A stretch of DNA of 64,000 bases from NCBI GenBank assembly GCA_004022145.1, contig RCNU01000006.1; one strand, given 5' to 3'. Position 1 is the first letter of the stretch. Every line of letters starts with the position of its first letter. Origin of the DNA: Paecilomyces variotii (lineage: Eukaryota). Position numbers and translations under genes: made by a program. Below the pieces are notes generated by a model. It saw nothing but the letters and a program-made list of their open reading frames with translations. It was not told where the DNA came from and searched no databases. This document shows, piece by piece, positions 16,919 through 47,882 of this stretch.

Positions 16919-18754
16919 ATGGTCGCCTTCAAATTGCCGTGGGCTCACAGACCAGCAAACGGCTCTGCAGCAGAAAACGCCCCGCTACTTGGAGCTCCAG
17001 GAAAACCTCATGCCACTAACCGAAATAGCAACCTGCATCATGAAAATGGAAATGGGAATTATGTGAATGGCCTCCCCAGGTCAAGGGTGCGATGGGAGAG
17101 CCCTACGAGACACCTGAGTTATGGAGTACAGATGCCACAGGCTCCTGGTGTTAGTCGTTATTTTGTAAGTTGGCGTATACACCCCAGGATACTGCTTGAT
17201 TAAATAATGGCATTACATTAACACCATGGAATGTGCAGATCCAAGAGCCAAACAGACGTTCGAGACTACCGGTCTTTCTACAGCTGCGAGGGAGCGTCAT
17301 GCCGAAAATGATATTCAAAACTGCTTTCGTAGCAGTCTGGTCCGCCTTGGTTACCACCATCTCTATTTATGCTTATGACCGTATGTGAGATATCTTCTGA
17401 TATACGTCGACGATAGAGAAGTGGTTGCTGATTTGAATATACCTATAGTTAGCATCAACAACATTCTGTTGACAGTTCTGGGTGTTGTTGTTGGTCTGGC
17501 TTTGTCTTTTCGGAGCTCAACTGCATATGACAGGTAAATAGTATATATATACCATGACTGCTGTGAAATACACTGACATCGAGCTCAGATTTAGTGATGG
17601 ACGCAAGTACTGGGCATTGCTGACCCAGACTTGTCGGGACCTTGCCCGTGTCATTTGGGTTAGCGTTGAAGAACGATCTGGGGAGCAGGGAAAGGATGAC
17701 GTACTAGGAAAACTGTATGATTTCTCAATGGAAAACCAGGGAGCATTTACTGACTGTCTAGTAGAACCGCATTGAACCTGATCCTTGCATTCACTATTGC
17801 ACTAAAACATAAATTGCGCTTTGAGCCTCTCATCTGCTATGAAGATTTGACCGGGCTCATTGGCTATCTCGACACATTCCTAAAGGAGCAGAATCTCCTC
17901 CGTGCAAATCAGAACGGAAACGTGCCGCATGACCCGCGCAAGAAGGCGAACGGTGCCCATGGGCTTCAGTTTCCTGCGTTTGGCTCCCAGAAGTTGATCA
18001 GAGAGTCCGAAAAGCCGCTGGAGCAGCTTCCTCTGGAGATCCTCAATCATATCTCAGCATATATCGACTACGTTTCTAAGAATGGCACTTTGGTATCAAC
18101 TCACCAGGGAGAATGCGGTAAGTCTCATTAGATCTGGTCTATATATTGCGTCTCTGACGAAGATAGTGTCGGCCGTTGCTACGCTGAATGAAGTATTGAC
18201 TGGCACCGAGCGAGTTTTGGAAACGCCTCTTCCAGCAGCATATACAATCGCCATATCGCAGATTACATGGGTTTACGTCCTCCTTCTTCCTTTCCAACTA
18301 TTCAGTTACCTAGGCTGGATAACTATTCCTGGTTCCATTGGTAATCACACCCTCATATCTACACTAGTCTGGTCATTAAACTAACACGGATATAGTCGGA
18401 GCATACATTATTCTTGGTCTTTCCGCCATCGGCGAAGAAGTGGAGAATCCATTTGGCCACGATGCGAACGATCTTCCCTTGGACTACTACTGTGAACGCC
18501 TGGCTAGAGAGTTCAGCGTTATGACGGCAACACCGCCTCCGAGATACAACGAGTTTGCTGAACGCGAGGACAACTATGTCCTGTACCCATTGAGTCTCAG
18601 CGGATTCACGGAGTGGAAGACCCGCTCTATGACGGATATCCGTGCAGCATTGAGAACGAACGCAGCTCTTGACACCCCCATCTTTACTATCAGCAGTCCT
18701 GTACTTGAGGAGGAAGAATTTGATCAGCACCCAGCACCTACTCAAACTGTTTAA
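16919..18754 (+). CDS. Bestrophin-like (UPF0187/YneE/VCCN-type) anion channel, multi-exon
   Basis: LRGSVMPKM, LLTVLGVVVGLALSFRSSTAYDRFSDGRKYW, ERVLETPLPAAYTIAISQITWVY, IGEEVENPFGHDANDLPLD across about 6 introns. Confidence 0.85.
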
Positions 18755-19648: not shown

Positions 19649-21371
19649 CTAGTATCGGTGCTGTTCGTGATGTTGGTCTGGAATCTGGATAGTCTGGCCA
19701 CTTTTAAGAGCCCCATTCACCACCACGCCTCCTGCAACGCCACTGACACCCCGATAAAGATGATTGTCACCGCTCTTGACTGTGAAATTGGCTAGCGAAA
19801 TCTCGCCGGGATTGCGAGTCATAATGGTAGGCATGCCAAAGTATTGGGCCTCAACTTCCTTTGGAGTGATATGCAGCTCAAAGTAGCCACGATAGTATAG
19901 TTCCGACCATTGCAGCTCTCTATTTATAGCAATAAGTGCCTTAGAGGCTTCAACAGAGAGTTCAATACTAATACTCTGCCCATATGGAGAAGGCGAGCTG
20001 ATAGCAGTACCGGCAAATTCAACACCAACTGATCCTATCCCAGTTGCCGGGTTATAAGGACTCTAATCAAGCCAGACCAAGTCACTCACCCAGTTAGCAT
20101 GGGAATCACCGGCAATCATGATAGTGTTCTCAATCTTATTATCATAAAGAGTTTTCAGTGTTCGGTTTCGGTTTGCCTGATATCCATCCCATTGGTCGTA
20201 GTTGAGTGGGTTCTTATCCCCATAAGCTACAGACTGATCGATATGAGAAAAGACTAGTCGATGGTTAATTCGATAGTTGCATGAATTCATTCAAGACTTG
20301 CCTGTTTGACTGCCAATTATCCGCCACGAGGCTCCCCGTTGGGCTGATTCCAGCAGGGAATGGTAGAACCAACTTTCCTGACGGGCTCCCATCATAGAAC
20401 GGCCAGCGTCATTAGACAACTCATGAACATAGTCTGTGTTCCAGTACAGATCTGTAATAGAGCGGTTGTAATTTCGGGTGTCTAACATGATTAGATCCAC
20501 AGGATTTCCTAGCTTAAAATTCCTCCAGATGCGAAGATTATCATCCATATCTGCCTGGCTATTTAGTTGTTAGCCTAAATAAGGACATAATAAAGTCCCC
20601 AGTTAACTTACCGAATGGGCATCCATTCAAAATACGCACGAACTGCATTCATTTTCCGCTGGTCAACAGAGACACCACCATCATTAATAAATGAAACTTC
20701 GGTATTATTTAACTCAGAAGAACCATCTCGATAGGTATTGTCTGCAACATCTATTGATTCTTACAGTCTATTTATCATACTTTAGCTTGAAACATACCGT
20801 GATCATCCCAGACTGGAATCCAGGCAAATTTTTCATGGTTCGCAAGTAGGTCCAGGTCAGTTCGGTATGTTGCCAGGCGCTTTCGATAATCATAAAGTGT
20901 GTAGATCTCTCTGCCGGGCAGTGGGACGCGCCCAATACTGTTTCCCCAACCGCTAGATAAATACTATTAGTATCCCCTAGTAATACTATTCTCCTCCCCT
21001 GAGACCACTTACTACGTAGTCCCCATTCTTATATTCATAAATGTAGTCGCTGCCATTCCTGTCAACTTTCATCATGACGTCGTTTTGATGTTAATTGCCC
21101 TTACCCAAGATGCAAGACATAGTCCACGGAGTCCTTTCGCACAGGGTTTCCAAATGCGTTAAAGAAACCAAATGCTAGTAAAATAATCAGTATAAAGCAG
21201 CTTCAAGTAAGTAGAGATAGAGTACATACGGTAGTTACTGCATGAATAGACAGCAAGATTGATGTTTTGCACAGAATCCTGTGCAGCAGGCGAAGTCTTT
21301 GTACGTCCAATTGGACTTGGAACTGGTAGTAATATGGGGTAAACGATTGCAGGTTGTTGAACTAACTGCAT
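19649..21371 (-). pseudogene. Alkaline phosphatase D (PhoD) family, disrupted
   Basis: SPIGRTKT, LAVYSCSNY, HLGDYIYEY, WDDH, LDTRNY, DQWDGY, GDSHANW; in-frame TAG at 20063-20065; no signal peptide or N-terminal domain found upstream. Confidence 0.82.
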
Positions 21372-22637: not shown

Positions 22638-23838
22638 ATGGTCAATGCAATCCAATTCCGTGGATCTCCCGAGGGGAAGGTCGTGCAAACAACGTTCACT
22701 CTTCCTGCTATCCAGGCAGATGAGGTTCTGGTGCGAGTAACCCACAGTGGACTTTGCGGTAGTGACATTCACGCGCTCAACAAGCCATTGGTGCTTGGAC
22801 ATGAAGGTTAGTAGCATACAGATTATTATCCAAAGGGTCTACATGGGACAAATAATGAGCTTACGTTGGTAGGGATTGGAATTATCGAGGAACTTGGCTC
22901 CGCAGTCACCCTCTTCAAGGTTGGAGACAGAGTTGGCTGGGGTCCACTAAACTCAACGTGCAGCTTATGCGAGTTCTGTCGCACTGGCCGGGATGCGTAT
23001 TGTCCAGAAGCGAGGACGTATAGCATGGTCGATTTCGATACCTTGGGATCTGTGTGCAGTCATGCCGTGCGCAAGCAACAGTGGATCTTCCACATTCCTG
23101 ATGCGCTCTCCTCGGAAAACGCCGCTCCTCTCATGTGTGAGTTTCAAAGAATATCAGTCTGTTCATCTACGTTACTGGTTTTCTCTAATTATTCTTTCTC
23201 CAGGTGGTGGTGGCACCGTGTGGGTTCCTCTGGTCGAGCAGTGCAGACCTTACGAGCGCGTTGGGATCGTCGGCATCGGTGGTCTCGGTCATCTCACCAT
23301 TCAATATGCCAGTAAGATGGGTTGCGACGTCGTGGCGTTTTCCTCCACGGAAGAAAAGCGGGAGGAAGCTCTAAAACTCGGTGCGAACGAGTTTTATGCC
23401 ACAAAGGGGATCGAAGATTACTCTCTCCTAGGCCTGAAAAAGCCAGTGGACCGCCTTCTGATTACCACTTCCGCGAAGTTGGACATCGGGATCTTCTATC
23501 CAATCTTGAATCGTAACGCCACTATTGTGCCACTTTCAGTCGACGGGGGCAACTTCACCGCACCATACTTTCCAACAGTCTATCATGGACAGAGAATTAT
23601 CGGCAGTTGTGTCTGTAGTCAGTTTCTTCAGTATGTGTGACTATATGAAAACCACATTGGCAGGGCCCATGGCTAATTTTCTGATTGCAGAGACAAAGCT
23701 TTAGACTTTGCAGCGCGAAACAAAATCTATGTCGTTGCCGAGAGGTTCCCCATGACATTGGAAGGGGTCACAGCATGTGTGGAAAAACTAGCTAGCGGGA
23801 AGATGCGCTATCGCGGAGTTCTCAGTTGGGAGTATTAA
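22638..23838 (+). CDS. Zinc-dependent (cinnamyl-type, probably NADP) alcohol dehydrogenase, 4 exons
   Basis: GLCGSD, GHEG, GDRVG, CSLCEFC..C structural Zn site, GIGGLG, C-terminal GKMRYRGVL. Confidence 0.9.
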
Positions 23839-31779: not shown

Positions 31780-34388
31780 CTATTGCCCGTCCTGCCTTTG
31801 GAATGCAGGAACCTTCCTTTCTTCGTTCTCATTGGCATTGTTCAAAATGATATCCTTCAAGATGATATCATCTTGTGCAGGTTGAAATTCAAGTTGCTTT
31901 TGCTTTCCTTTTTCTGATGATGGTTTCTCTGAGGATGACGGCGATGTCGATGGCTCCGGCACGATATCTTCTGCTGCATCTTTCTTAGAGGCAGAATCAG
32001 GCTGGGAAACAGATTCGGCCAAAGAAACAGCGTCCTCAGCGATGACCTTTCTGGTCTTTCCCCATCCAAAAGAGTCCATGTTCCAGCATGAATATAGTAG
32101 AACGGAAATATTAATGAATGGACCACAGAAAGTATACAGGGCACAACCGGCCCAGAATTGGAAACGGTCACGCCAGGCCTTGCACAACCACAATGGGATG
32201 CACAGGTAGTAAACAAGAGGGATCAACATAACGCTGACAAAACACATGATGATCCAGGCAGGAGTGTCTAATACGCAGTTAGTGGTTCTGTCATCAAGTC
32301 TCTTGGCGTTAGGTGCTTTTACTTACGGGTCATAGCGAAGATGAAACTGACAACGCTTGCAAAAATGAAGAAATTCAGGAACCAGGTAAGGCAGTTCACG
32401 ACAGCGATGATTCTCTCGAACCATTGGACACCGGGCGCCCACACCAGGAGCAAGTCGTTAGACGTGGCACCAAGTGACCAACGTCTGCGCTGGGATAAGA
32501 ATACAGACCATGTGTACGGGACGTCGGTGTAGGCCTTCGCCTTCAAAGCTTGACGGGTCTGGACTTTGGGACGCATAGAGAGCATGTGGCATACGTGGTT
32601 ACGGTCCTCACTGGCTGTAGCCCGGATTTGGGTCAACATGCCATCGGTCAGTGTGGGACAATAACCGAACTTTTCGACCAGGACTTCCTGACCACAGGTC
32701 TCTTCACATATCTTCAGCAGTTGACAGCACCCCGGAAGACAGGACACTTTATGAGTGGCAATAGATTGATGCAGACGACGAAGACCTTGCGCAATAGTGT
32801 ACTCTGCAGATTGGTATAGACGCCACGGATCCCAGTGGCCGTCTTTCCAGTCGACAGCGACGTAACCGCAGACTCCAACTGTGTGGGGGTACCGCGACTC
32901 CTTAAGGAGCTCGGAGATGCAGTAGTCGTCGAAAACCGTGTCCGCGTCCATTCCGACCAGGTGGTCAACGTTGTCAATGCCCGCCTCCTTCAGGAACGAA
33001 GCCATGAATCCGAAGAACCTGGGAGAGAAGATGGTTTCAGGATGCTCCGCGCGCACATTGTAGTTGTAGAGGAACGAGCGGACAACAATGAGACTGTCCC
33101 GCTTTCCTTGGTTCTGCTGCTTCACAATGCAGAAGTACGGGACGCCTCGGTAGGTGCCCTTCTGGACAACAACATCCATGAATTCCTGGTCCCAGGCTAG
33201 GTATGCGCCGCGAATGCGAACACGGTAGTCTTTCTGCACGAGAATGTCTTCGAATAGATAATCTGCTGTCGTCTTATCCATCCCAGGGCCGCGCACCTTA
33301 CCGTCACAGATAATCATAACTGCTTGGGGATGCTGGCCAATGTCCTTCTGTGTGACAAGGGAGTCCAGTGACTTGGTCATCTCCTCCATGGTCTCATTAT
33401 AGCACGGGATGAGGAGCACCAGGTTTTCGGGCTTCTCAGGCATGATTTGTTTTTCCGGGAAAATGCGATGCCAGATAACATGAGCGCCGATCGAGAAGAC
33501 CATTATGCTGTTCAGTGCGACAGTAGCGGTGATGAATGGAAGGAGGACATAAGCGAATCTAGGCCACCACCAGGTGACAAAGATGAAAAAGCCATTCATC
33601 AGGACGACTGCTGCTTGCATGAGGTGTTTTTGGGAGACAATGGTCCTTCTGCCTCGTCGGCGAACCTTTGGAGTATCCTCAACCCGAGCCTTGGGTGTTG
33701 CAGTTGTAATGCAATCTTGCCATTCCTCAATGGAGGGTTCTGACGGACCATGGGCTTGGAGATTCTTCTCCTCGGTACTCGACCCGGGTAGTGTTTCGAC
33801 AGCAGCAGCAGCTGACTCTTCTTCGATGTCGATATCCCAGCTGCCTCGCGGCCCTGCTGGTGGCACAAATGGCTGTGCCAGGGGCTCTGGGGTAATCAAG
33901 GAGCTCTTTCGTTTGCCCTTGAGCGTGAGATCAGGCGAGGAAACGCTGGTAAGTGAAGAGTCATCCTTGAGCTCTAAGCTGTGAGCGGTCTCATATCGAC
34001 TGATCACGTCAAATGAAACTGGCGACGAGGTCCTTCGCTGGCCGAAACCATCTGGGACCGTTGATTTTGAAGAGGGCGAAGAACTGCTCTGGGCATTGGA
34101 GGATTGCGTCGTAGTAGGCTCTATAGCTACCTCAGCACTGCGGGTAGATGAGCCCGAGGCAGATCGACCGGATGAGATTGAGCGAGTAGAAACTATCGGT
34201 ATTTTGGACGGCAGCGTGGAGAACACTTTCCCTAGAATCGACCTTCTGCCCCTGCTATGGCTGCTTTTCACTTTCGCGATCGCAACTTTTTGAGGCAAAG
34301 TGATGGTCTTGACTGCGATGGGCAGCCCATCTTGGTCGGCTGATTGAAACACCACCTCTCCGTTCTGAGGTCCGATGGTACACATCAT
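31780..34388 (-). CDS. Divergent chitin-synthase-like processive glycosyltransferase (GT2); exons 32327-34388 and 31780-32267
   Basis: IPCYNE, ICDG, NQGKRDS, MDADT, QSAEY, SCLPGC, SEDR, SQRRRW and SFGWGKTR motifs; 2 N-terminal and several C-terminal TM segments; Ser-rich N-terminus. Confidence 0.92.
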
Positions 34389-35137
34389 GAGACGTTACCG
34401 ATGGCGGCGACGGGAAGAATAGTAAACAAAGTATGAGTACTATTTGTGTATGGGGGTATTCTTTCGTCTTGTGGAATTGAAGGTATCCTTCCGCCTGCGG
34501 GAGACCTTAAGAATTGCACGATTGACGTCGGGCGTGGCAATCAATGGTCATATACCTGGAGGTCCTGGGTGGGAGGCAAATTTCAGAGACCTCTGGCCCT
34601 GGAAATAACAACAGAAAAGACAGAGACTGCTCGTGGATAATGGCGTGCGCATTGCGTCCAGGGATTTCTGGCCCGTGTTTACTCGATTAGTTTCTGGCCA
34701 AAGTATCTGGCCAGGCTCGCGGAGCCCTTTGTCACGATCGACACTATGAAGCCCATGTCCACTAGCTGCTGGGCGAATAGGAATCCCAAGGTCTAGATCA
34801 TACTCACGAACCGTGGATCTGACAGTTCTGCGCCTCCAACGTTATTTTAACTTTGGATCGTTCGCTGGTTTCGCCAACTTCCGAATATGGCCATTACCGT
34901 CAATACAAGGGCAAAACACATCGCGTAAAATTCCCTAGGATCACAATCTCAGTAATGATATTATCATCATCTCTGAACGGAGGCAAACATGCTTCCTTGG
35001 CCTACGAGGCCTACCTGACGGATCTGGCTTCAGGCCAAGACCTTAAGAATATTGCCCATCACCCGTTCATCCTACCTATACCTCATTGTAACTCACAAAG
35101 AACAAACGTACAGATTAACGGAGAAGAAATAACGACA

Positions 35138-36379
35138 ATGGACTATTTCCCTTTTGTCCACGGCTCCTATTACCCTTCCTGGAAGGTTTACAGAGGGCAA
35201 ACGCCCTCGACACTGGACCTAACCGCCACAACTCATGTTTTCTATGCTTTCTTGAGGTGAGTTACATACCACCGTCTATTCTGGGGGAGGGAGGAGCCAC
35301 AGACTAACTATTCCTCGTTGGGTAGACTTCTCCCCAATGGCGACATTCAGGTAAGCTTGACCAGATGCGACCCACGTTCCACCTAACTGACTGTTCGCTT
35401 AGCATCTGGACGAAAAGGCTGACCTTGAGTACCCCACTGACGGGACAAAGGGCTGTCTGAATGCTCTGTCACTCCTCAAGCGTGAGAGGTTCCCCCATCT
35501 GAAGCTCATAGTGTCTCTTGGGGGTGGCAGTGGAAGTGGTCCATTCGCGGAACTCGCTGCTGTCCCTGAAAGCCGCGCTAGACTTGCGCAATCTGTGCGC
35601 AAGTTCGTTGATCAATATGGATTCGACGGCGTCGATGGTATGAAAACTCATTCTTTTACTCCCTCATCCTCACATTCCCTCATGGCATATTGACCAACAT
35701 CGACCTAGTCGACTGGGAGCACCCATCCACACCGGAGCAGGGCAAGAACTACGTTATTCTCCTCGGGGAGCTCCGAAAAAGCCTCCCCGCCCCCAGGTAT
35801 CTTCTTACCACGGCTTTGCCGGTTGGTGAATGGAGTCTGCGCCACATTAATCTAAAGACCGTGGGACAGCTAGTCGACCTAGTCAATCTGATGTGCTATG
35901 ACTTTGCTGGCCCGTGGACTAAAATGTCAGGCCACCAGAGTCAACTGTACTCACCTACACGACCCCACAATGACTTTGCGAAGCGATCCGTCCATGGGGC
36001 TGTGACTTATTTTCTCTCTCACGGAGTTCATCCTCGCAAGATCGTACTCGGGATTCCACTTTATGGCCGGCAGTTTCCGGGCCTGGACCGTGTTGGGCAG
36101 AGCTTCCATCGTTATGCTGGAGACGGAGGTATACTAGACTACAAGGACCTTCCTCCACCAGGTGCGCAGGAGTTTGTTGACCAAAAGCTCGGTGCCGCCT
36201 ATTGTGTCTCCAAGGATGCGGGATTTATTACCTATGACAACCCGACTACAGTAGCTGCTAAGGCGCAGTACGTGAAGGCGCACAAGTTAGGAGGACTATT
36301 CTACTGGACAGGCACTGCAGATGCTCCGCCAGGGCCTCGTAGCCTTATCACTACAGGATCGCGGGAACTGTTTTCTTAG
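35138..36379 (+). CDS. GH18 chitinase-like hydrolase without signal peptide, 4 exons
   Basis: YYPSW, THVFYAF, SLGGG, spliced FDGVDVDWEHP (DxxDxDxE), NLMCYDF, LGIPLYG, LGGLFYW. Confidence 0.9.
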
Positions 36380-36883
36380 TGAAGAGCATACCATGTTGCT
36401 CAAATTACATTGTGGCAGTGAAATTATTGTTTATAACCGTGTGATGTAGCCTTTTTCTGGACTAGAAGTTGAGATAATTCGATGCCCAACAATTCAATCT
36501 TGATTCATTGGGAGCTAGGAGAGGAGAAGAAGCATTACCTGTGCGGGCACTAAAGACTCTTGCACCAGCCGTCCAAACATAATTTCCAAGGATCTCTACT
36601 GGGTACAGTACAATGAAAAAGACTATCTGCACGGTTCAAGGTATATTCACTATTATGAAGTAATTCCAAGGAGAGATATGGTACGTTTTTCTTTTTAGAA
36701 AACCTGTTACGAATGCTCATTCTTATAATAGCGGAGACCTAAGTAGATAAACTATATAACAAATCATTATTTCAGTATATTTAAACCGTCCAACCTATCT
36801 ATCCAATGATGACAGCAATCAGGACATATACATGAATCGTTAAACTAAACGCCTCAAACCAAAGTCATTTTCATTCTTTTTCT

Positions 36884-38254
36884 TCACGATGCCGTAAAGT
36901 TCTCGACGTGGACTCCATCAAGATTCCGTAGGACATCCATATCCAGCCCCACCTGGTTCACAGCGACGATGATAATATCGAACTGCTCCTCAAGAGATTC
37001 TTTGTTCCAGTCCTTCTGGTCATCCAGTCTGGGGACGTAGGGAACCGCTTCTTCACTGACAAGGGGATCGGCAAACTCTACGTATGCCTCCCACTCGTCG
37101 AGCAAGTGGCGGGTGAGAGCAAGGCCAGGAGAGTTGCTCAGGACGGATTGACCACGCTTGAAGCCGACTCCAACTACGAGAACTCGAGTTCGGTCTGACT
37201 TTGGAGGTCCCGTCCAAGAAGCCTTCCGACGATTGAGGTATCTTCTCATCACACGATCACCCAATGTAGCAGGGCGATTAGCCATCTTCTCACTTGCTGC
37301 CTTGAGGAGAGGGAAGTCACAGTTGGAGAGAAGATAGTATGGGTTGACAGGAATGCAATGTCCGCCAACACCAAGCCCAGGAGAGTAGGGCATGTAGCCG
37401 AATGGCTTCGAGGCAGCAGCAGCAGACACTTCGTGTGGGTTGATCCCAAGAGTATGGCACGCATCGGCCATTTCGTTTGCGTGCGCAATGCAGACCATGC
37501 GCTGGCAGTTCTCGTAAAGCTTTGTCATCTCTGCGACCTCGGGGGAAGAGACAGGAACAAGGTTTCGGAATACTTGTTCGTATAGTTCTTGGATGCTGGA
37601 TAGTGAGCCGGGAACGATGTCATCAAGACCAGAAATGATCTTGGGAATGTGTTCAAGAGGGGGATCGGTGCGGCCAGGGTCAACGCGCTCAGGCGACATG
37701 CCTGCCTTGAGACCCTTCAGAAGCATGACCTCCTTCAGCAGGTCTCTGCTCATGCCCACTGCAACGGAGCTCTCGATTACGACTGTGGAGCCAGGTCGTG
37801 CGTATTGTGCAACAAGATCAATGGCACTTCTGAGATGTTGTGTATCCACAGTGTTGTCATGGTGCAGCCGTGTAGGAACGGAGATCAAGAAGTGTGTTGC
37901 AATCGCCAGTTCTTCCGGGTTGGTGGTACAGTGGACCTTCAGGTTGGCCATCAGGGGCTCAATCTCACTGAGACGACGTTGATCGACATCGAAGGCAATA
38001 ACGTCGTGGACTCTCCCGAATGCAGTAGCAAGTTGGTAGCCGATGTAACCGACTCCAATAACAGCAACGATACTGCGACTTTCTCGGGGTGGTGGTGTGA
38101 CCTCGATAATAGGCACGTCGAAGAAGTATTCATCTGCCTTCTCGAGATTGCCATTCGGAGGCGGCGTGGGGAGACCAGTATTAGAGCGCATCAAGCCCAT
38201 GAGTGACCTTTTGTCCTCATAGACCGGAGTTGTAAACGACGGAACGAAATCCAT
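36884..38254 (-). CDS. Nucleotide-sugar dehydrogenase (UDP-glucose/GDP-mannose DH family, UDP-N-acetylhexosamine DH-like), intronless
   Basis: VIGVGYIG, ISVPT, IESSV, SPERVDPG, AEMTKLYEN, GVGGHCIPVNP (catalytic Cys), GVGFK. Confidence 0.92.
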   Translation of the reverse strand: MDFVPSFTTPVYEDKRSLMGLMRSNTGLPTPPPNGNLEKADEYFFDVPIIEVTPPPRESRSIVAVIGVGYIGYQLATAFGRVHDVIAFDVDQRRLSEIEPLMANLKVHCTTNPEELAIATHFLISVPTRLHHDNTVDTQHLRSAIDLVAQYARPGSTVVIESSVAVGMSRDLLKEVMLLKGLKAGMSPERVDPGRTDPPLEHIPKIISGLDDIVPGSLSSIQELYEQVFRNLVPVSSPEVAEMTKLYENCQRMVCIAHANEMADACHTLGINPHEVSAAAASKPFGYMPYSPGLGVGGHCIPVNPYYLLSNCDFPLLKAASEKMANRPATLGDRVMRRYLNRRKASWTGPPKSDRTRVLVVGVGFKRGQSVLSNSPGLALTRHLLDEWEAYVEFADPLVSEEAVPYVPRLDDQKDWNKESLEEQFDIIIVAVNQVGLDMDVLRNLDGVHVENFTAS

Positions 38255-44040: not shown

Positions 44041-47000
44041 CTATCCACGTCTCTCCTCGTCCCCAGGACTTCTTCTCCCCTCGGCTTCCCGGCTGTCCAG
44101 TTCCATCTGATACAGTTCGATCAGATACAATGACCGATTTGCTCTCTCTTGCAGAACTCTTCTCCGCAGTTCGTAAGTCGATAGCGATCCTGCATCTACT
44201 AGCCGGTGATCGAGGCTACTGCGAACATCAGGTGTCCGATCGCGATAGTCGGCCACGGAGAAAGCAGAGTCGCGTGTTGGACTGCGCTCACGGTGTCGGT
44301 CGGCATCTCTCTGGGTCTCTGTCAGCCACTGGGCCCTTTCCTCGTCAGTCGGAGGTCTATAGGCAGGTTCGCTCCACGAAAGGTTCACTCGCGGAAGCGT
44401 TGGAGACCCAGGCGGCGAAACGTCTGGGAAACCCTCTGTCTCCTGCTCCTGCGACTCGGCCGATTGCTGGAGTGGACCTTGCTGCTGCAGTTGTGGTTGC
44501 GGTTGCTGTCGGACTGACTGTTGCTGCCGCTGCTGTTGCCGCCGTCCAACTGTTTGCTGCGGCGCGGCTGGTTGCTGAGCTGTAGACGTCCTCAGTTTCC
44601 GACGGTCACCGTCGTGAGGCCCATAACCGTAGTTGTGGAAGTTGGCGGGCTGGTCGATCTCGGTGACCGTTCGCCGATCACACCAGGTCAGGGTATCGCC
44701 CTTCTCAGATACATCCCGAAGCAGAGACACCAGGAAACGAGTCCCCTTATCCTGGGAGAGTCTGGCTATCGCCCCCTTGTTCTAGATACTGAGATTGCCA
44801 ACGATAATCAAGACTTTCCGAGCGCGGCTCAACGCAACATTCAGTCGTTGGCTGTCCGCCACGAAGCCCGCGCTCTTCCCGTCTGAGTCCGACGGCTTGG
44901 TCATCAAGAAGATGACAATATTTGCCTCTGAACCCTGGCAGGCGTCCACAGTTAGATTATCGCGGCACCTCAGGTTTTCATCTTGCAGCAACTCGTCGAC
45001 AAGGTGTTTCTGGTCCTTATAGGGACTGATGATCATCACATCCTCTGGCGTGATCTGTTCCCCGCGGGTTGATCGGAACAAGTAAAGCTCTGTCAAAAGC
45101 TGTATCGCAACATGCGCTTGGGCGGGGTTTTGCCATGATAGGCTATTGCCCGAATGATGGGCTAGACCATTTACACTGATGAAGACTCTCCGGTGCCCTT
45201 CAAGTCCCTGTTTATAGAAATAATGGCGCGATCCAGTAAACTCATCCCACGTATTACCAACACGCTCTGCCGCCGCATTGCCAGAAGCCACCTTAAGCTT
45301 TCCGCTATACACCTGCTTGTTATATAAGTCCAGGATATCCGGATGGTTTCTGTAGTTGGTCTGGAGAGTAGTCAACGGGTACCCTGCCGTATATAGCCTA
45401 TCCATGAGGGAGCGCTTAAGGAAAAACGCATTCTCATTGTTCAGGTTCTCAGAGATCACAGTCGGAGGGAGCTGCTTCGGGTTACCAAGAAGAATCACCA
45501 CTTTGATTGATGGCATTGTCATGGCAATCATGTGGTCACCTTCAAGGCATTGGCCGGACTCGTCGCACATGAGGACCTGAGGTTCGAAGACCCCGGGGAT
45601 CCGCAGGATATCCTGAGACGCGTTGTTCAGGGTCGTCGCGACAATCTTGGCTCTTTGCAGCTCCTCCCTTGAAAGTTGCTCAAGACAGTTCTTGAGCTCC
45701 TTTGTCTGCGAGCGGCTGAGACCTTGGTCTCTGTCGGCTTGCAAGAGGTTGAGGAATCTCTGTCGCGTCTCTACCTCCTTGGCAGTCGTTTCTCGTTCCG
45801 GCTCGCTTTCGGCACGAGCAAGGACCAACTGCTCCATCTGAACCCGAAGCAGTTCCATCTCGTCTTCACTCGGCTTCTTGAATGGTCCCTTGCCCTTCTC
45901 TTGCATGGCCGAGAGCTGGTAAGCGGGAGATCGGAAGCGTATGACCTTGCCACACCAACTGCTGATGAAAGCATCCTTTTTGACAGCTTTCACGACAGCT
46001 GCTGCCAAGTTATCCACCCCTTTGTTGGATCCTGCGGCGATGAGGACACGGATACCGAGACACGCAAAGGCGAGGATAATGACCAACGCTGTGTGTGTCT
46101 TGCCAGTCCCCGGTGGGCCCTGGATCAGGTGTATCCCAGCCACAATTTGGCGGACAGACCGGTTGAAAGCCTTGCGTTGCGTTTCGTCCAGCGGGAACTT
46201 GTCCAGAATATAGCGCAAGCGATGTTCTTTCTGATCTCGTTCGACGTTTGACAGTTTATAGATGTCTAGTTCGAAGTAGTCGTCGCTATTCGGGTTAAGC
46301 TCTTGTCCGTGGGCCAGGATGGTCTTGTGGAGAGAGTATCCTTCACGAGCGTGGCCTTCCATGTCTCCCCAGACCCGGTCCGTGTGAGCCCTTTGCAAGG
46401 CATCGATCTGGCGATCAACGGCCTGGAGGTTTGGTTTTATCACCACAACAATGGAGACCCGGTCAGGGTTCATCGCAAAGTCCACCTCCGGCAATTTTGA
46501 GCGCAGGACAAAGTCAGCTCTTGTTTTCCGGTGCACAACAACACCGGTATATTTGAGATCGGTCTTCTTGGTCTCTGCGATACTTTCAGTATCAACAAAA
46601 GCGAACTCCGCTTCTACTGGAGGACTAATCTCCGGAATAAAGAATCCTTCTTCGACGACGTCAGCCCCTATTTTCACGTGAATTAAGCGCTCACCGGCTT
46701 TCTGCTCTTCGTCGAACCAGAAACTGTGGCGTCGCTCCGTGGAAAAGATGCTCGTGATCGCCTGGTACTGCGTGGCTCTCTCGGCTCGCATTCCCTCGAT
46801 TAGCATCCATTTTCTCTCCTCGTTGGTGGAAAAGAAAGGTTCCTTAGGGATAATCTTGGTATACGATTTCCGCTCTTTGTCCCAGAGCCACATAAGTTCG
46901 GGGTACCGCCCCTCCGAGTTGTCCGCGAGTCTCGATGGCTCTGCGTTTTTGTAGGCCCAAAAGGTCTCTCCTTTTGATTGCAAGACTGCATACCATGAAT

Positions 47001-47526
47001 GGATCTCTCGCCTTAACTTGTGTCCAGGGTTGTATTCCTTGCAGATCAAGATTCTGACCTTATCTTTCATGGCCTCTTCGTATAGTTTGTCCCAGGGCTG
47101 CCTGAACTTTTCTTCGAGTTCCCAGCTTTTCCCAGTCCGAAGTGGAGAACTTAGCATGTCAACAACCCAGAACTCTGTCTGATTCCAACCATTGCACAGC
47201 CGTGGCCTATTCTTGCGAACATTCTGAATCCTCTCGTAGCCGGGATTGCCCTGGACTTCAATTCCCATATCGGCCCGGCTGTTTTCGAGACTGAATATCA
47301 TCTGAGCACTGGGCTTATCCGGACCTTGATCTCCGATATCGAGAATGATCCTTGGATTCTGAGAATCTAGGAGAATACGGCCTCTGCACTCGACATAGCT
47401 GTCATCTTGCCAGTCGGCGTCAAAGGTTACACGAACTGGCCTCCGCTGTGAAGCTTGTCCAGCAAGCCCTGCAGGATAGTCAAAACCCTGAGGAGTGTCA
47501 AACCACTCAGCTCCGGGAAGCTCCAT
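44041..47526 (-). pseudogene. SF1 UPF1/DNA2-NAM7-like helicase (about 1160 codons) interrupted by one in-frame TAG
   Basis: QGPPGTGKT, SNKGVDNL, DESGQ, GNPKQLPP, NYRNHP, ISPYKDQ, TVDACQGSE, RLNVALSRAR; TAG at 44782-44784 with the same frame continuing to 44041. Confidence 0.85.
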
Positions 47527-47621
47527 CCTAGAAAGTGTGAGTACTATGGAAAGTATATAATGGTAAGCAGGTGTTCTTACTTTCTTTATTGCGTGGTAAG
47601 GAGCAAAGCGTTTTCGGACCT

Positions 47622-47882
47622 CAGCACCTAAAACCGAATTGGCTGTCAAGAACGCCAGCACCTAAAAAGGCCTGACAACAAGACGAAACCGATTCTGTTG
47701 ATTGAGGACCCCAGCACCTAAAAGGCCTGAGAAAAGAAAGAAACCGAATTGGCTGTCAAGAACACCAGCACCCAAGAAGGCCTGATAACAAGACAAAACC
47801 GATTCTGTCAATTGAGAACCCCGGCACCTAAAAGGCCGGAGAAAGAAAAAGGTGTAGAACCCCGGTACCTAAAGAGGCCCGA
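47622..47882. repeat. Hierarchical tandem repeat: two ~110-bp units containing a recurring CAGCACCTAAAAGGCC-like core
   Basis: Units ~47632-47741 and ~47742-47850 align closely; core motif occurs about six times. Confidence 0.85.

Follow-up and report, generated by a model that had tools for sequence, protein, structure and literature searches.

Of all groups of fungal chitin synthases (CHS), the virus-like enzymes are the least well understood. Chen et al. described a two-gene cluster, CHSL-UNGD, which pairs a chitin-synthase-like gene with a gene for a UDP-N-acetylglucosamine (UDP-GlcNAc) 6-dehydrogenase and was reported from Wangiella dermatitidis, Fusarium, two Aspergillus species, Ustilaginomycetes and algal viruses (Chen et al., 2014; PMC4059230). 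The two genes were adjacent in every genome that these authors examined. The cluster splits into two clades; W. dermatitidis is absent from the one whose members are accompanied by a polysaccharide deacetylase (PMC4059230). Goncalves et al. later named the classes ESV and CV and reported a UNGD neighbour for both, with a deacetylase for CV in 'nearly all species' (Goncalves et al., 2016; PMC5122149). In Trichoderma atroviride the cluster takes the form chs8-cda1-UNGD and is induced during mycoparasitism (Kappel et al., 2020; PMC7053769). Here we analyse a relative of these clusters in a 64,000-nucleotide stretch of Paecilomyces variotii DNA (contig RCNU01000006.1, assembly GCA_004022145.1), which is called the window in the following. 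Its positions 31780–38254 hold three intact genes, for a family 2 glycosyltransferase (GT2), a family 18 glycoside hydrolase (GH18) and a nucleotide-sugar dehydrogenase.

Loss of FgCHS8, the Fusarium graminearum enzyme, lowers chitin content and CHS activity (PMC5122149), and a Trichoderma chs8 mutant contains 87% of the wild-type amount of GlcNAc (PMC7053769). Kappel et al. speculated that the product is a chitin- or hyaluronan-like protective polymer and that two substrates may be used, and pointed to the homology of chs8 to hyaluronan synthases (PMC7053769). In plant-pathogenic and mycoparasitic fungi, virus-like CHS affect virulence or are induced during attack (PMC5122149, PMC7053769). 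The chs gene of chlorovirus CVK2, which encodes 516 amino acids, adjoins udp-gdh2, a second UDP-sugar dehydrogenase gene (Kawasaki, 2002, cited in PMC9614988), and the extracellular fibres are chitinase-sensitive (PMC9614988).

The linkage of synthase and dehydrogenase is therefore already in print, and the locus is a P. variotii lineage variant of a known cluster. An earlier note, made from the sequence of this stretch, had stated that virus-related CHS clades are linked to such genes; this agrees with four publications (PMC4059230, PMC5122149, PMC7053769, PMC12653383). We consider it quite probable that the locus is a CV-class cluster in which a GH18 stands in place of the family 4 carbohydrate esterase (CE4) deacetylase, with the division of labour proposed below, the acidity of the product left aside. 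The possible novelty lies in a GH18 subfamily that, in the CV-type cluster of some Eurotiomycetes, takes the place of CE4 or occurs alongside it. In the available portions of the cluster literature we found no mention of such a GH18, although no dedicated search was made and PMC7053769 was not searched for 'chitinase'.

Three transcribed genes in one locus

The synthase gene lies on the minus strand at 31780–34388 and encodes 849 amino acids in two exons (34388–32327 and 32267–31780). Its frame contains no internal stop and is interrupted by a single 59-nt intron with GT..AG ends (32268–32326). A divergent intergenic region of 749 bp (34389–35137) separates its start from that of the GH18 gene, which occupies 35138–36379 on the plus strand. 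The GH18 protein of 349 amino acids is encoded by four exons (35138–35256, 35326–35350, 35403–35637 and 35709–36379) in an open frame, and the three introns between them (35257–35325, 35351–35402 and 35638–35708) likewise have GT..AG ends. The dehydrogenase gene (36884–38254, minus strand) is unspliced, with an open frame of 456 codons; it converges on the GH18 gene across a 3′ region of 504 bp (36380–36883) and lies 2.5 kb upstream of the synthase gene on the same strand. The models agree with proteins deposited at NCBI for P. variotii: 840 of 848 residues are identical between the synthase and P0001 ('CAZyme family GT2'), 345 of 349 between the GH18 and P0121 ('CAZyme family GH18') and 455 of 456 between the dehydrogenase and P0241, a hypothetical protein. 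Open frames, spliced contigs and these matches confirm what the earlier note had proposed, namely three intact genes, two of them divergent across about 750 bp and a dehydrogenase converging on the GH18.

The contigs in question come from sequencing runs X4 and X7, which belong to two studies. Both runs contain contigs from which the synthase intron and GH18 introns 1 and 2 have been spliced out; splicing of GH18 intron 3 is seen in X7 only. These spliced forms identify the contigs as RNA-derived and the genes as transcribed. Unspliced contigs of both runs cover the intronless dehydrogenase gene. All three genes are thus transcribed; parts that X4 and X7 do not cover carry no information on expression. 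Two metatranscriptome libraries, X2 and X3, contain one unspliced contig over the whole 7 kb and unspliced pieces, respectively, and show the DNA sequence rather than its transcription. An X4 contig spans 35005–35164, so that the 5′ untranslated region of the GH18 gene extends into the divergent intergenic region. This region is a possible shared promoter of the synthase and GH18 genes.

The same data reveal variation at the locus. Compared with the window, X7 lacks 15 bases at 31919, in the C-terminal tail of the synthase, and shows many single-site differences besides. In P. variotii No. 5 the synthase is 93% and the dehydrogenase 90% identical to the window. P. variotii strains or sibling species therefore differ noticeably at this locus.

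Family membership of the three proteins

Both synthase exons match Chitin_synth_2 (PF03142, 8e-28), and PF13632 and PF00535 are the only other domains; the Pfam scan found no myosin, cytochrome b5 or DEK domain. In the numbering of P0001, the motifs DADT (480), EDR (593), QRRRW (632) and WGKTR (755) are all present. These positions are invariant in a 14-sequence alignment (A1), and the processive D, D, D, QxxRW set is retained. By hydropathy, two hydrophobic segments precede the catalytic domain at residues 255–299, and more follow at 665–710 (same numbering). The N-terminal 255 residues (33624–34388) are rich in serine (18%) and unconserved among relatives; this extension may be a regulatory or disordered region.

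The class of the enzyme was approached through labelled sequences and phylogeny. Over 99% of its catalytic region, the window GT2 is 62% identical to P0109 of Fusarium verticillioides, which by eye matches CV_Gibmon_10332 over the whole displayed part of that entry in the labelled FASTA file of the Goncalves et al. (2016) supplement. As far as the entries are displayed, the window GT2 has long runs in common with CV_Gibmon_10332 and CV_Gibzea_12297, including WWWPRYYY, PCYNET, CDGxVRGPGMxKTT, QNQGKRDSLIV and MDADTVF, and further CISELLKES, AEYTIAQGLRRLHQSIAT, ASEDRNH and SQRRRWxLGATSNDLLL. A tree was calculated from 80 fungal and giant-virus-like sequences, with CHS classes I–VII left out; in it, all 65 fungal sequences, the window GT2 and P0109 among them, group together in a single clade (SH-aLRT 100), and the 15 giant-virus-like sequences lie outside it. 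Based on the labelled match through P0109, the long motif runs and the single fungal clade, we assign the window GT2 to the CV (chlorovirus-like) class, an assignment to be read within the scope of that tree. A language-model search placed chitin synthase clusters of Ascomycota (0.99) and Nucleocytoviricota (0.98) nearest to it, and a cluster named 'Hyaluronan synthase, putative' at rank 17 (0.92). A profile of the family (A1) gave three weak matches in the PDB, all to chitin synthases; a phmmer search of the PDB with a GT2 exon found no match. Motifs and class together predict chitin synthase activity.

The GH18 protein matches Glyco_hydro_18 (PF00704, 1e-41) and carries the catalytic motif FDGVDVDWE, of which D128, W129 and E130 are invariant across 14 aligned sequences. 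In the PDB it is closest to family 18 chitinases of bacteria and fungi, among them Coccidioides CTS1 and Aspergillus fumigatus ChiB1 (1w9p, 2.7e-57). Its N-terminus, MDYFPFVHGSYYPSW, leads straight into the first barrel strand, and hydropathy and inspection reveal no hydrophobic leader. The leader is also missing from the GH18 proteins of Penicillium taxi, P. malachiteum and two metagenomic loci described below (L024 and L026). Since the whole ChiB-type group is likewise leaderless, the missing leader is a trait of this wider group and not specific to the cluster.

Database matches to the GH18 fall into two tiers. The upper tier (61–88% identity) comprises P. taxi, P. malachiteum, P. macrosclerotiorum and further contigs, and the lower tier (up to 59%) is broad and consists of class V ChiB-type chitinases, one of them a second paralogue from P. 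variotii (P0134). When 120 sequences were placed in a tree, all 12 GH18s labelled as linked to the cluster fell within one clade of 20 (support 91), separate from a 28-member Eurotiales ChiB-type clade (support 99) that includes P0134; a further linked protein, P0200, was left out of this tree for being shorter than 215 amino acids. A Lys-Arg pair (Lys218 and Arg219) in the motif PHNxFAKRS (residues 212–220) is present in 11 of 11 linked sequences and in none of the three ChiB-type sequences aligned. By phylogeny, the cluster-linked GH18s are placed in a subfamily of their own, apart from ordinary ChiB-type chitinases.

The dehydrogenase has N-terminal, central and C-terminal UDPG_MGDP_dh domains (Pfam), and its open reading frame (ORF) contains SPERVDPG and, as the GGxC motif of the catalytic cysteine, GGHC. 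It passes the general model TIGR03026 with 236 bits (cut-off 190). Against more specific models it scored 131 and 114 bits for UDP-N-acetylmannosamine (UDP-ManNAc) dehydrogenases (cut-offs 750 and 459) and 103 bits for TviB, the UDP-GlcNAc model (cut-off 592), compared with 57, 39 and 28 bits for UDP-glucose dehydrogenases. The closest PDB relatives are the UDP-ManNAcA dehydrogenase 4r16 and Cap5O. These scores classify the protein as a dehydrogenase of UDP-N-acetylhexosamine (UDP-HexNAc) type, or 'UNGD', rather than of UDP-glucose type. As it stays below every equivalog cut-off, it does not count among the bacterial or archaeal equivalogs tested. No epimerase gene, which could provide UDP-ManNAc or UDP-GalNAc, was found by Pfam among the window ORFs scanned.

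For all three proteins, the characterisation given in the earlier note holds. It had described an atypical chitin-synthase-like GT2 with DADT, EDR, QRRRW and WG.TR motifs and no myosin or cytochrome b5 domain, a leaderless GH18, and a UDP-HexNAc-type dehydrogenase. To this we add the CV class of the synthase.

Conservation of the gene neighbourhood

A metagenome scan returned 80 loci with related synthases, of which 19 were fungal-like (52–70% GT2 identity) and 61 giant-virus-like (35–48%). A dehydrogenase lay next to the synthase in all eight fungal-like loci with at least 2.3 kb of upstream flank (tblastn); the other 11 extend no more than 1.7 kb upstream, and no dehydrogenase was seen there. 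Adjacent locus tags for the two genes are also found in Boeremia (OPT61_g839/g840), in an Elasticomyces/Exophiala record (LTR10_021726/7) and in Neocucurbitaria (061330/061320), while in Diplodia (SLS54_003623/3621) one gene separates them.

The accessory genes are more variable. Among the 19 fungal-like loci, two (L024 and L026) contain a relative of the window GH18 (58–60% identical) and five (L023, L024, L026, L028 and L035) a CE4 deacetylase. In both L024 (2197–14310) and L026 (1685–14181) the order, by Pfam, is dehydrogenase on the minus strand, CE4, CV-class synthase and leaderless GH18. Their CE4 has a chitin-binding module and a signal-like N-terminus, and the L024 synthase is nearly identical to P0015 of Lithohypha guttulata. 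L023 combines dehydrogenase and synthase with two CE4 genes and a GH16 gene (Pfam). In L021 the dehydrogenase is directly upstream of the synthase, and neither CE4 nor GH18 lies within 10 kb on either side. The 64-kb window itself yielded no CE4 in tblastn searches with three queries (from L023, L024 and L026; E ≤ 1e-4), and PF01522 was absent from the Pfam scans of its ORFs.

In the GT2 tree, ten GH18-linked sequences fall into one subclade of 34 (support 91), made up of Eurotiales, a Lithohypha-like lineage and Dothideomycete sequences. The near-identical loci L020 and L021 also have their synthase in this subclade, yet lack a GH18. The position of the GH18 gene differs as well: in the window it lies between the pair on the opposite strand, and in L024 and L026 downstream of the synthase on the same strand.

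Additional linkage was deduced from source sequences of equal size. Matches to all three genes come from sequences of 30185 nt and from the P. taxi and P. malachiteum chromosomes, those to synthase and GH18 from sequences of 40885 and 6444 nt, and those to GH18 and dehydrogenase from sequences of 7470, 4597 and 205662 nt; a source of 997732 nt corresponds to L026. In several Penicillium- and Paecilomyces-like contigs we take equal sizes, above all of short sequences, as an indirect sign of a shared contig.

We conclude that the synthase–dehydrogenase pair is the constant core of the cluster, that the chitin-active accessory gene varies, and that the GH18 is a lineage-specific accessory. The polymer-handling gene is thus interchangeable: some lineages have a secreted CE4, others a leaderless GH18, and L024 and L026 have the two together. 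The self-contained three-gene module of the earlier note has to be revised to this extent. Its synthase–dehydrogenase core recurs in all eight informative fungal-like loci, and the GH18 is co-located in two of them.

Many environmental giant-virus-like contigs encode a CV-like chitin synthase, 30–48% identical to the window GT2. A dehydrogenase accompanies it in two of the 61 metagenomic loci and in one of 19 IMG/VR loci, the latter being the same contig as one of the two; these are the contig labelled both L001 and L039, and L057. Fungal queries detected no GH18 and no CE4 in the giant-virus-like loci (L001–L019 and L038–L099).

Around the module, the left 15 kb of the window contain a cytochrome b5 reductase-like gene, SMC, RIO1 kinase, ATG17 and an F-box/WD40 gene (Pfam), and a DUF3425 gene lies within 16–31 kb. 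Partial matches to bestrophin (17998–18381, profile positions 181–243 of 288) and PhoD (19652–20062, positions 277–343 of 343) may each be an exon of a split gene or a remnant. An alcohol dehydrogenase (22815–23640) has its N- and C-terminal domains in two overlapping frames, possibly because of an intron or a frameshift. Between 26001 and 28000 the G+C content falls to 22.7%, compared with 41–56% elsewhere in the window, as would fit a decayed repeat. The flanks at 26–31.8 kb and 38.3–44.8 kb are ORF-poor, with about 6 kb without recognisable ORFs to the right of the module, followed by a 959-aa ORF with the SF1 helicase domains AAA_11 and AAA_12 (44782–47661). Thirty flank ORFs gave no Pfam match above the curated cut-off, the single match being Pombe_5TM at 17 bits (cut-off 27). 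The window ORFs scanned included none for an epimerase, a deacetylase or another sugar-nucleotide enzyme. The surroundings would fit a gene-poor, possibly decayed region. The description of the module as lying 'among pseudogenes' could not be confirmed, as no recognisable broken genes were seen beside it and partial or split matches are confined to 18–23.6 kb.

Predicted product and relation to known systems

Processive GT2 enzymes polymerise on the cytosolic face of the membrane and extrude the chain, and NAD-dependent dehydrogenases of this kind yield a UDP-HexNAc-uronic acid. GH18 enzymes need the N-acetyl group of the sugar in the −1 subsite and cut GlcNAc-containing chains. With these properties, the three proteins could be arranged into a pathway. 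The cytosolic dehydrogenase would oxidise UDP-GlcNAc to UDP-GlcNAcA with NAD+, as its family suggests. The membrane synthase, judged by its motifs and class, would polymerise β-1,4-linked HexNAc at the cytosolic face and extrude the chain. This chain would tentatively be chitin-based and contain or carry GlcNAcA supplied through the linked dehydrogenase. The GH18 might then hydrolyse or transglycosylate GlcNAc-containing chains or oligomers, either inside the cell or after release.

Two lines of reasoning underlie this proposal. The accessory enzymes, the GH18 and the CE4 with its chitin-binding module in L024 and L026, are by family assignment chitin-active; these chitin-type enzymes and the chitinase-sensitive fibres of CVK2 point to a chitin-based chain. 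The linkage with a UDP-HexNAc dehydrogenase persists in fungi, and plain chitin would not need this enzyme, which suggests that what the dehydrogenase makes is of importance for the polymer. An acidic product of chitin- or hyaluronan-like kind was already put forward as speculation in the published papers; the idea is thus not new, nor is it refuted here. A more specific version, which we regard as rather doubtful, is that the CV-class synthase and UDP-GlcNAcA together give a natural 'chitouronan', a β-1,4-HexNAc polymer with C6-carboxylated residues, which the dedicated Eurotiomycete GH18 subfamily with its Lys-Arg pair would cut or prime. To our knowledge, no such polysaccharide has been chemically described from fungi. 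More generally, the constant dehydrogenase link suggests a polymer of the wall or matrix other than plain chitin, which would be relevant to immune recognition and to antifungal targets.

Several observations weigh against parts of this reading. The GH18 is missing from six of the eight informative fungal loci, including L021, and its link to the pair may consequently be regulatory or accidental. A cytosolic GH18 could not reach an extruded polymer without some other route of release, which makes this the weakest step of the scheme. For most GH18s marked as 'linked' in the tree, the label derives from equal source-sequence sizes; the DNA was seen directly for the window, L024 and L026 only. 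Contig depth can neither rank the genes nor show their co-expression. The dehydrogenase is below all equivalog cut-offs and scores slightly higher for UDP-ManNAc than for UDP-GlcNAc models, which makes UDP-GlcNAc a putative substrate. The sole characterised relative of the synthase, that of chlorovirus CVK2, is reported to make chitin (PMC9614988), and a review of November 2025 lists virus-like CHS as unclassified, with no product identified for the fungal CV-class synthases in its available text (PMC12653383).

It is about as probable as the GlcNAcA-containing chain that the GT2 makes ordinary β-1,4-GlcNAc chitin for particular occasions or sites, such as stress, spores or interaction. The dehydrogenase product would then go to another acceptor or serve regulation, and the GH18 would be a co-regulated remodelling or autolytic chitinase. 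The chitin fibres of CVK2 (PMC9614988) and the reduced chitin and CHS activity upon FgCHS8 loss (PMC5122149) are in line with this, as are the chitin-type accessory enzymes, the complete set of processive CHS motifs, the exclusive match of the family profile to chitin synthases in the PDB, and the occurrence of the virus-like synthase without a dehydrogenase in most loci. UDP-GlcNAc is abundant and its use calls for no dedicated dehydrogenase; yet the pair is adjacent across Eurotiomycetes, Dothideomycetes, Sordariomycetes and Leotiomycetes. That the GH18 stands outside the functional unit, as a duplicated ChiB-like chitinase that landed beside the pair in some Eurotiomycetes, appears unlikely. 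This explanation would account for L020 and L021, for the differing position and strand of the gene and for a leaderless state general to the ChiB-type group. However, the linked GH18s group by themselves, away from the ChiB orthologues, the catalytic D-W-E is kept in 14 aligned sequences, and the gene recurs with the pair in other arrangements and lineages, directly in L024 and L026 and by inference in the equal-sized short sequences of 6444, 4597 and 7470 nt.

A hyaluronan-like polymer, in which the GT2 would alternate GlcNAc with glucuronic acid like class I hyaluronan synthases, is highly improbable. The remarks of Kappel et al. on chs8 (PMC7053769) and the rank-17 cluster of the language-model search favour it, but the closest clusters in that search are chitin synthases (0.98–0.99), and the linked dehydrogenase reaches at most 57 bits for the UDP-glucose type against 103–131 for HexNAc types. 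The family profile matched no PDB hyaluronan synthase at E ≤ 0.01. According to a 2026 bioRxiv preprint, moreover, fungal hyaluronan synthases occur mainly in Basidiomycota and are nearest to class VI CHS. The hyaluronan-like alternative that the earlier note had offered for the product is accordingly given very little weight. Membership of the GT2 in the ESV class, that of the W. dermatitidis CHSL, has next to no probability. The window lacks a deacetylase, which Chen et al. tie to the clade without W. dermatitidis (PMC4059230), and this would speak for ESV; against it, the window GT2 has long runs in common with CV-labelled sequences. In the displayed part of the supplement, ESV-labelled fungal and viral sequences differ throughout the catalytic core (for example IPAYSESEEQ, VILDGKPRD and HQRRRWGSN), and the ESV class was rejected.

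The CV-class cluster with a GH18 in place of CE4 can be set beside the described systems. It is closest to chs8-cda1-UNGD of T. atroviride and FgCHS8 of F. graminearum, with which it has in common the class of synthase (CV, also called 'class VIII' or CHS8), the type of linked dehydrogenase and the same short build, a CS2 domain between hydrophobic segments and no myosin, cytochrome b5 or DEK domain. Unlike chs8-cda1-UNGD, the window has no CE4 in 64 kb and carries a GH18 between the pair instead. The window synthase reads QRRRW where the Trichoderma enzyme has QRKRW (PMC7053769). No Trichoderma GT2 is among the best 120 matches to the window GT2, which therefore probably belongs to another orthologue group than chs8.

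The W. dermatitidis CHSL-UNGD cluster resembles the window in gene pairing, patchy distribution, algal-virus relatives and the logic of a dehydrogenase that feeds a transferase. Judged by the description of Chen et al., the W. dermatitidis enzyme falls into the ESV clade, that of brown-algal viruses; as a third gene of the cluster their accessible text names a deacetylase, and no chitinase (PMC4059230). Chlorovirus CVK2 contributes a member of the same wider CHS group with a dehydrogenase neighbour, but the viral enzyme is much shorter and its product is reported to be chitin (PMC9614988).

Among more distant systems, synthase-dependent exopolysaccharide loci, such as those for bacterial poly-N-acetylglucosamine, alginate and Pel and the Aspergillus galactosaminogalactan cluster, combine a polymerase with a sugar- or sugar-nucleotide-modifying enzyme and a glycoside hydrolase. 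The hydrolase and deacetylase of these loci act outside the cytoplasm. The analogy drawn in the earlier note is apt for the logic of gene content; it fails for the hydrolase, since the window GH18 is leaderless, and no family beyond GT2 is common to both. The GH18 has the fold family, catalytic motif and missing signal peptide of ChiB-type chitinases such as AfChiB1, but groups apart from the ChiB orthologues and has the FAKRS Lys-Arg pair that the three aligned ChiB-type sequences lack. Compared with all these systems, the P. variotii locus adds no new principle; it is a compact three-gene version of the cluster, whose transcripts appear in two RNA-derived data sets and which could be studied in its own host.

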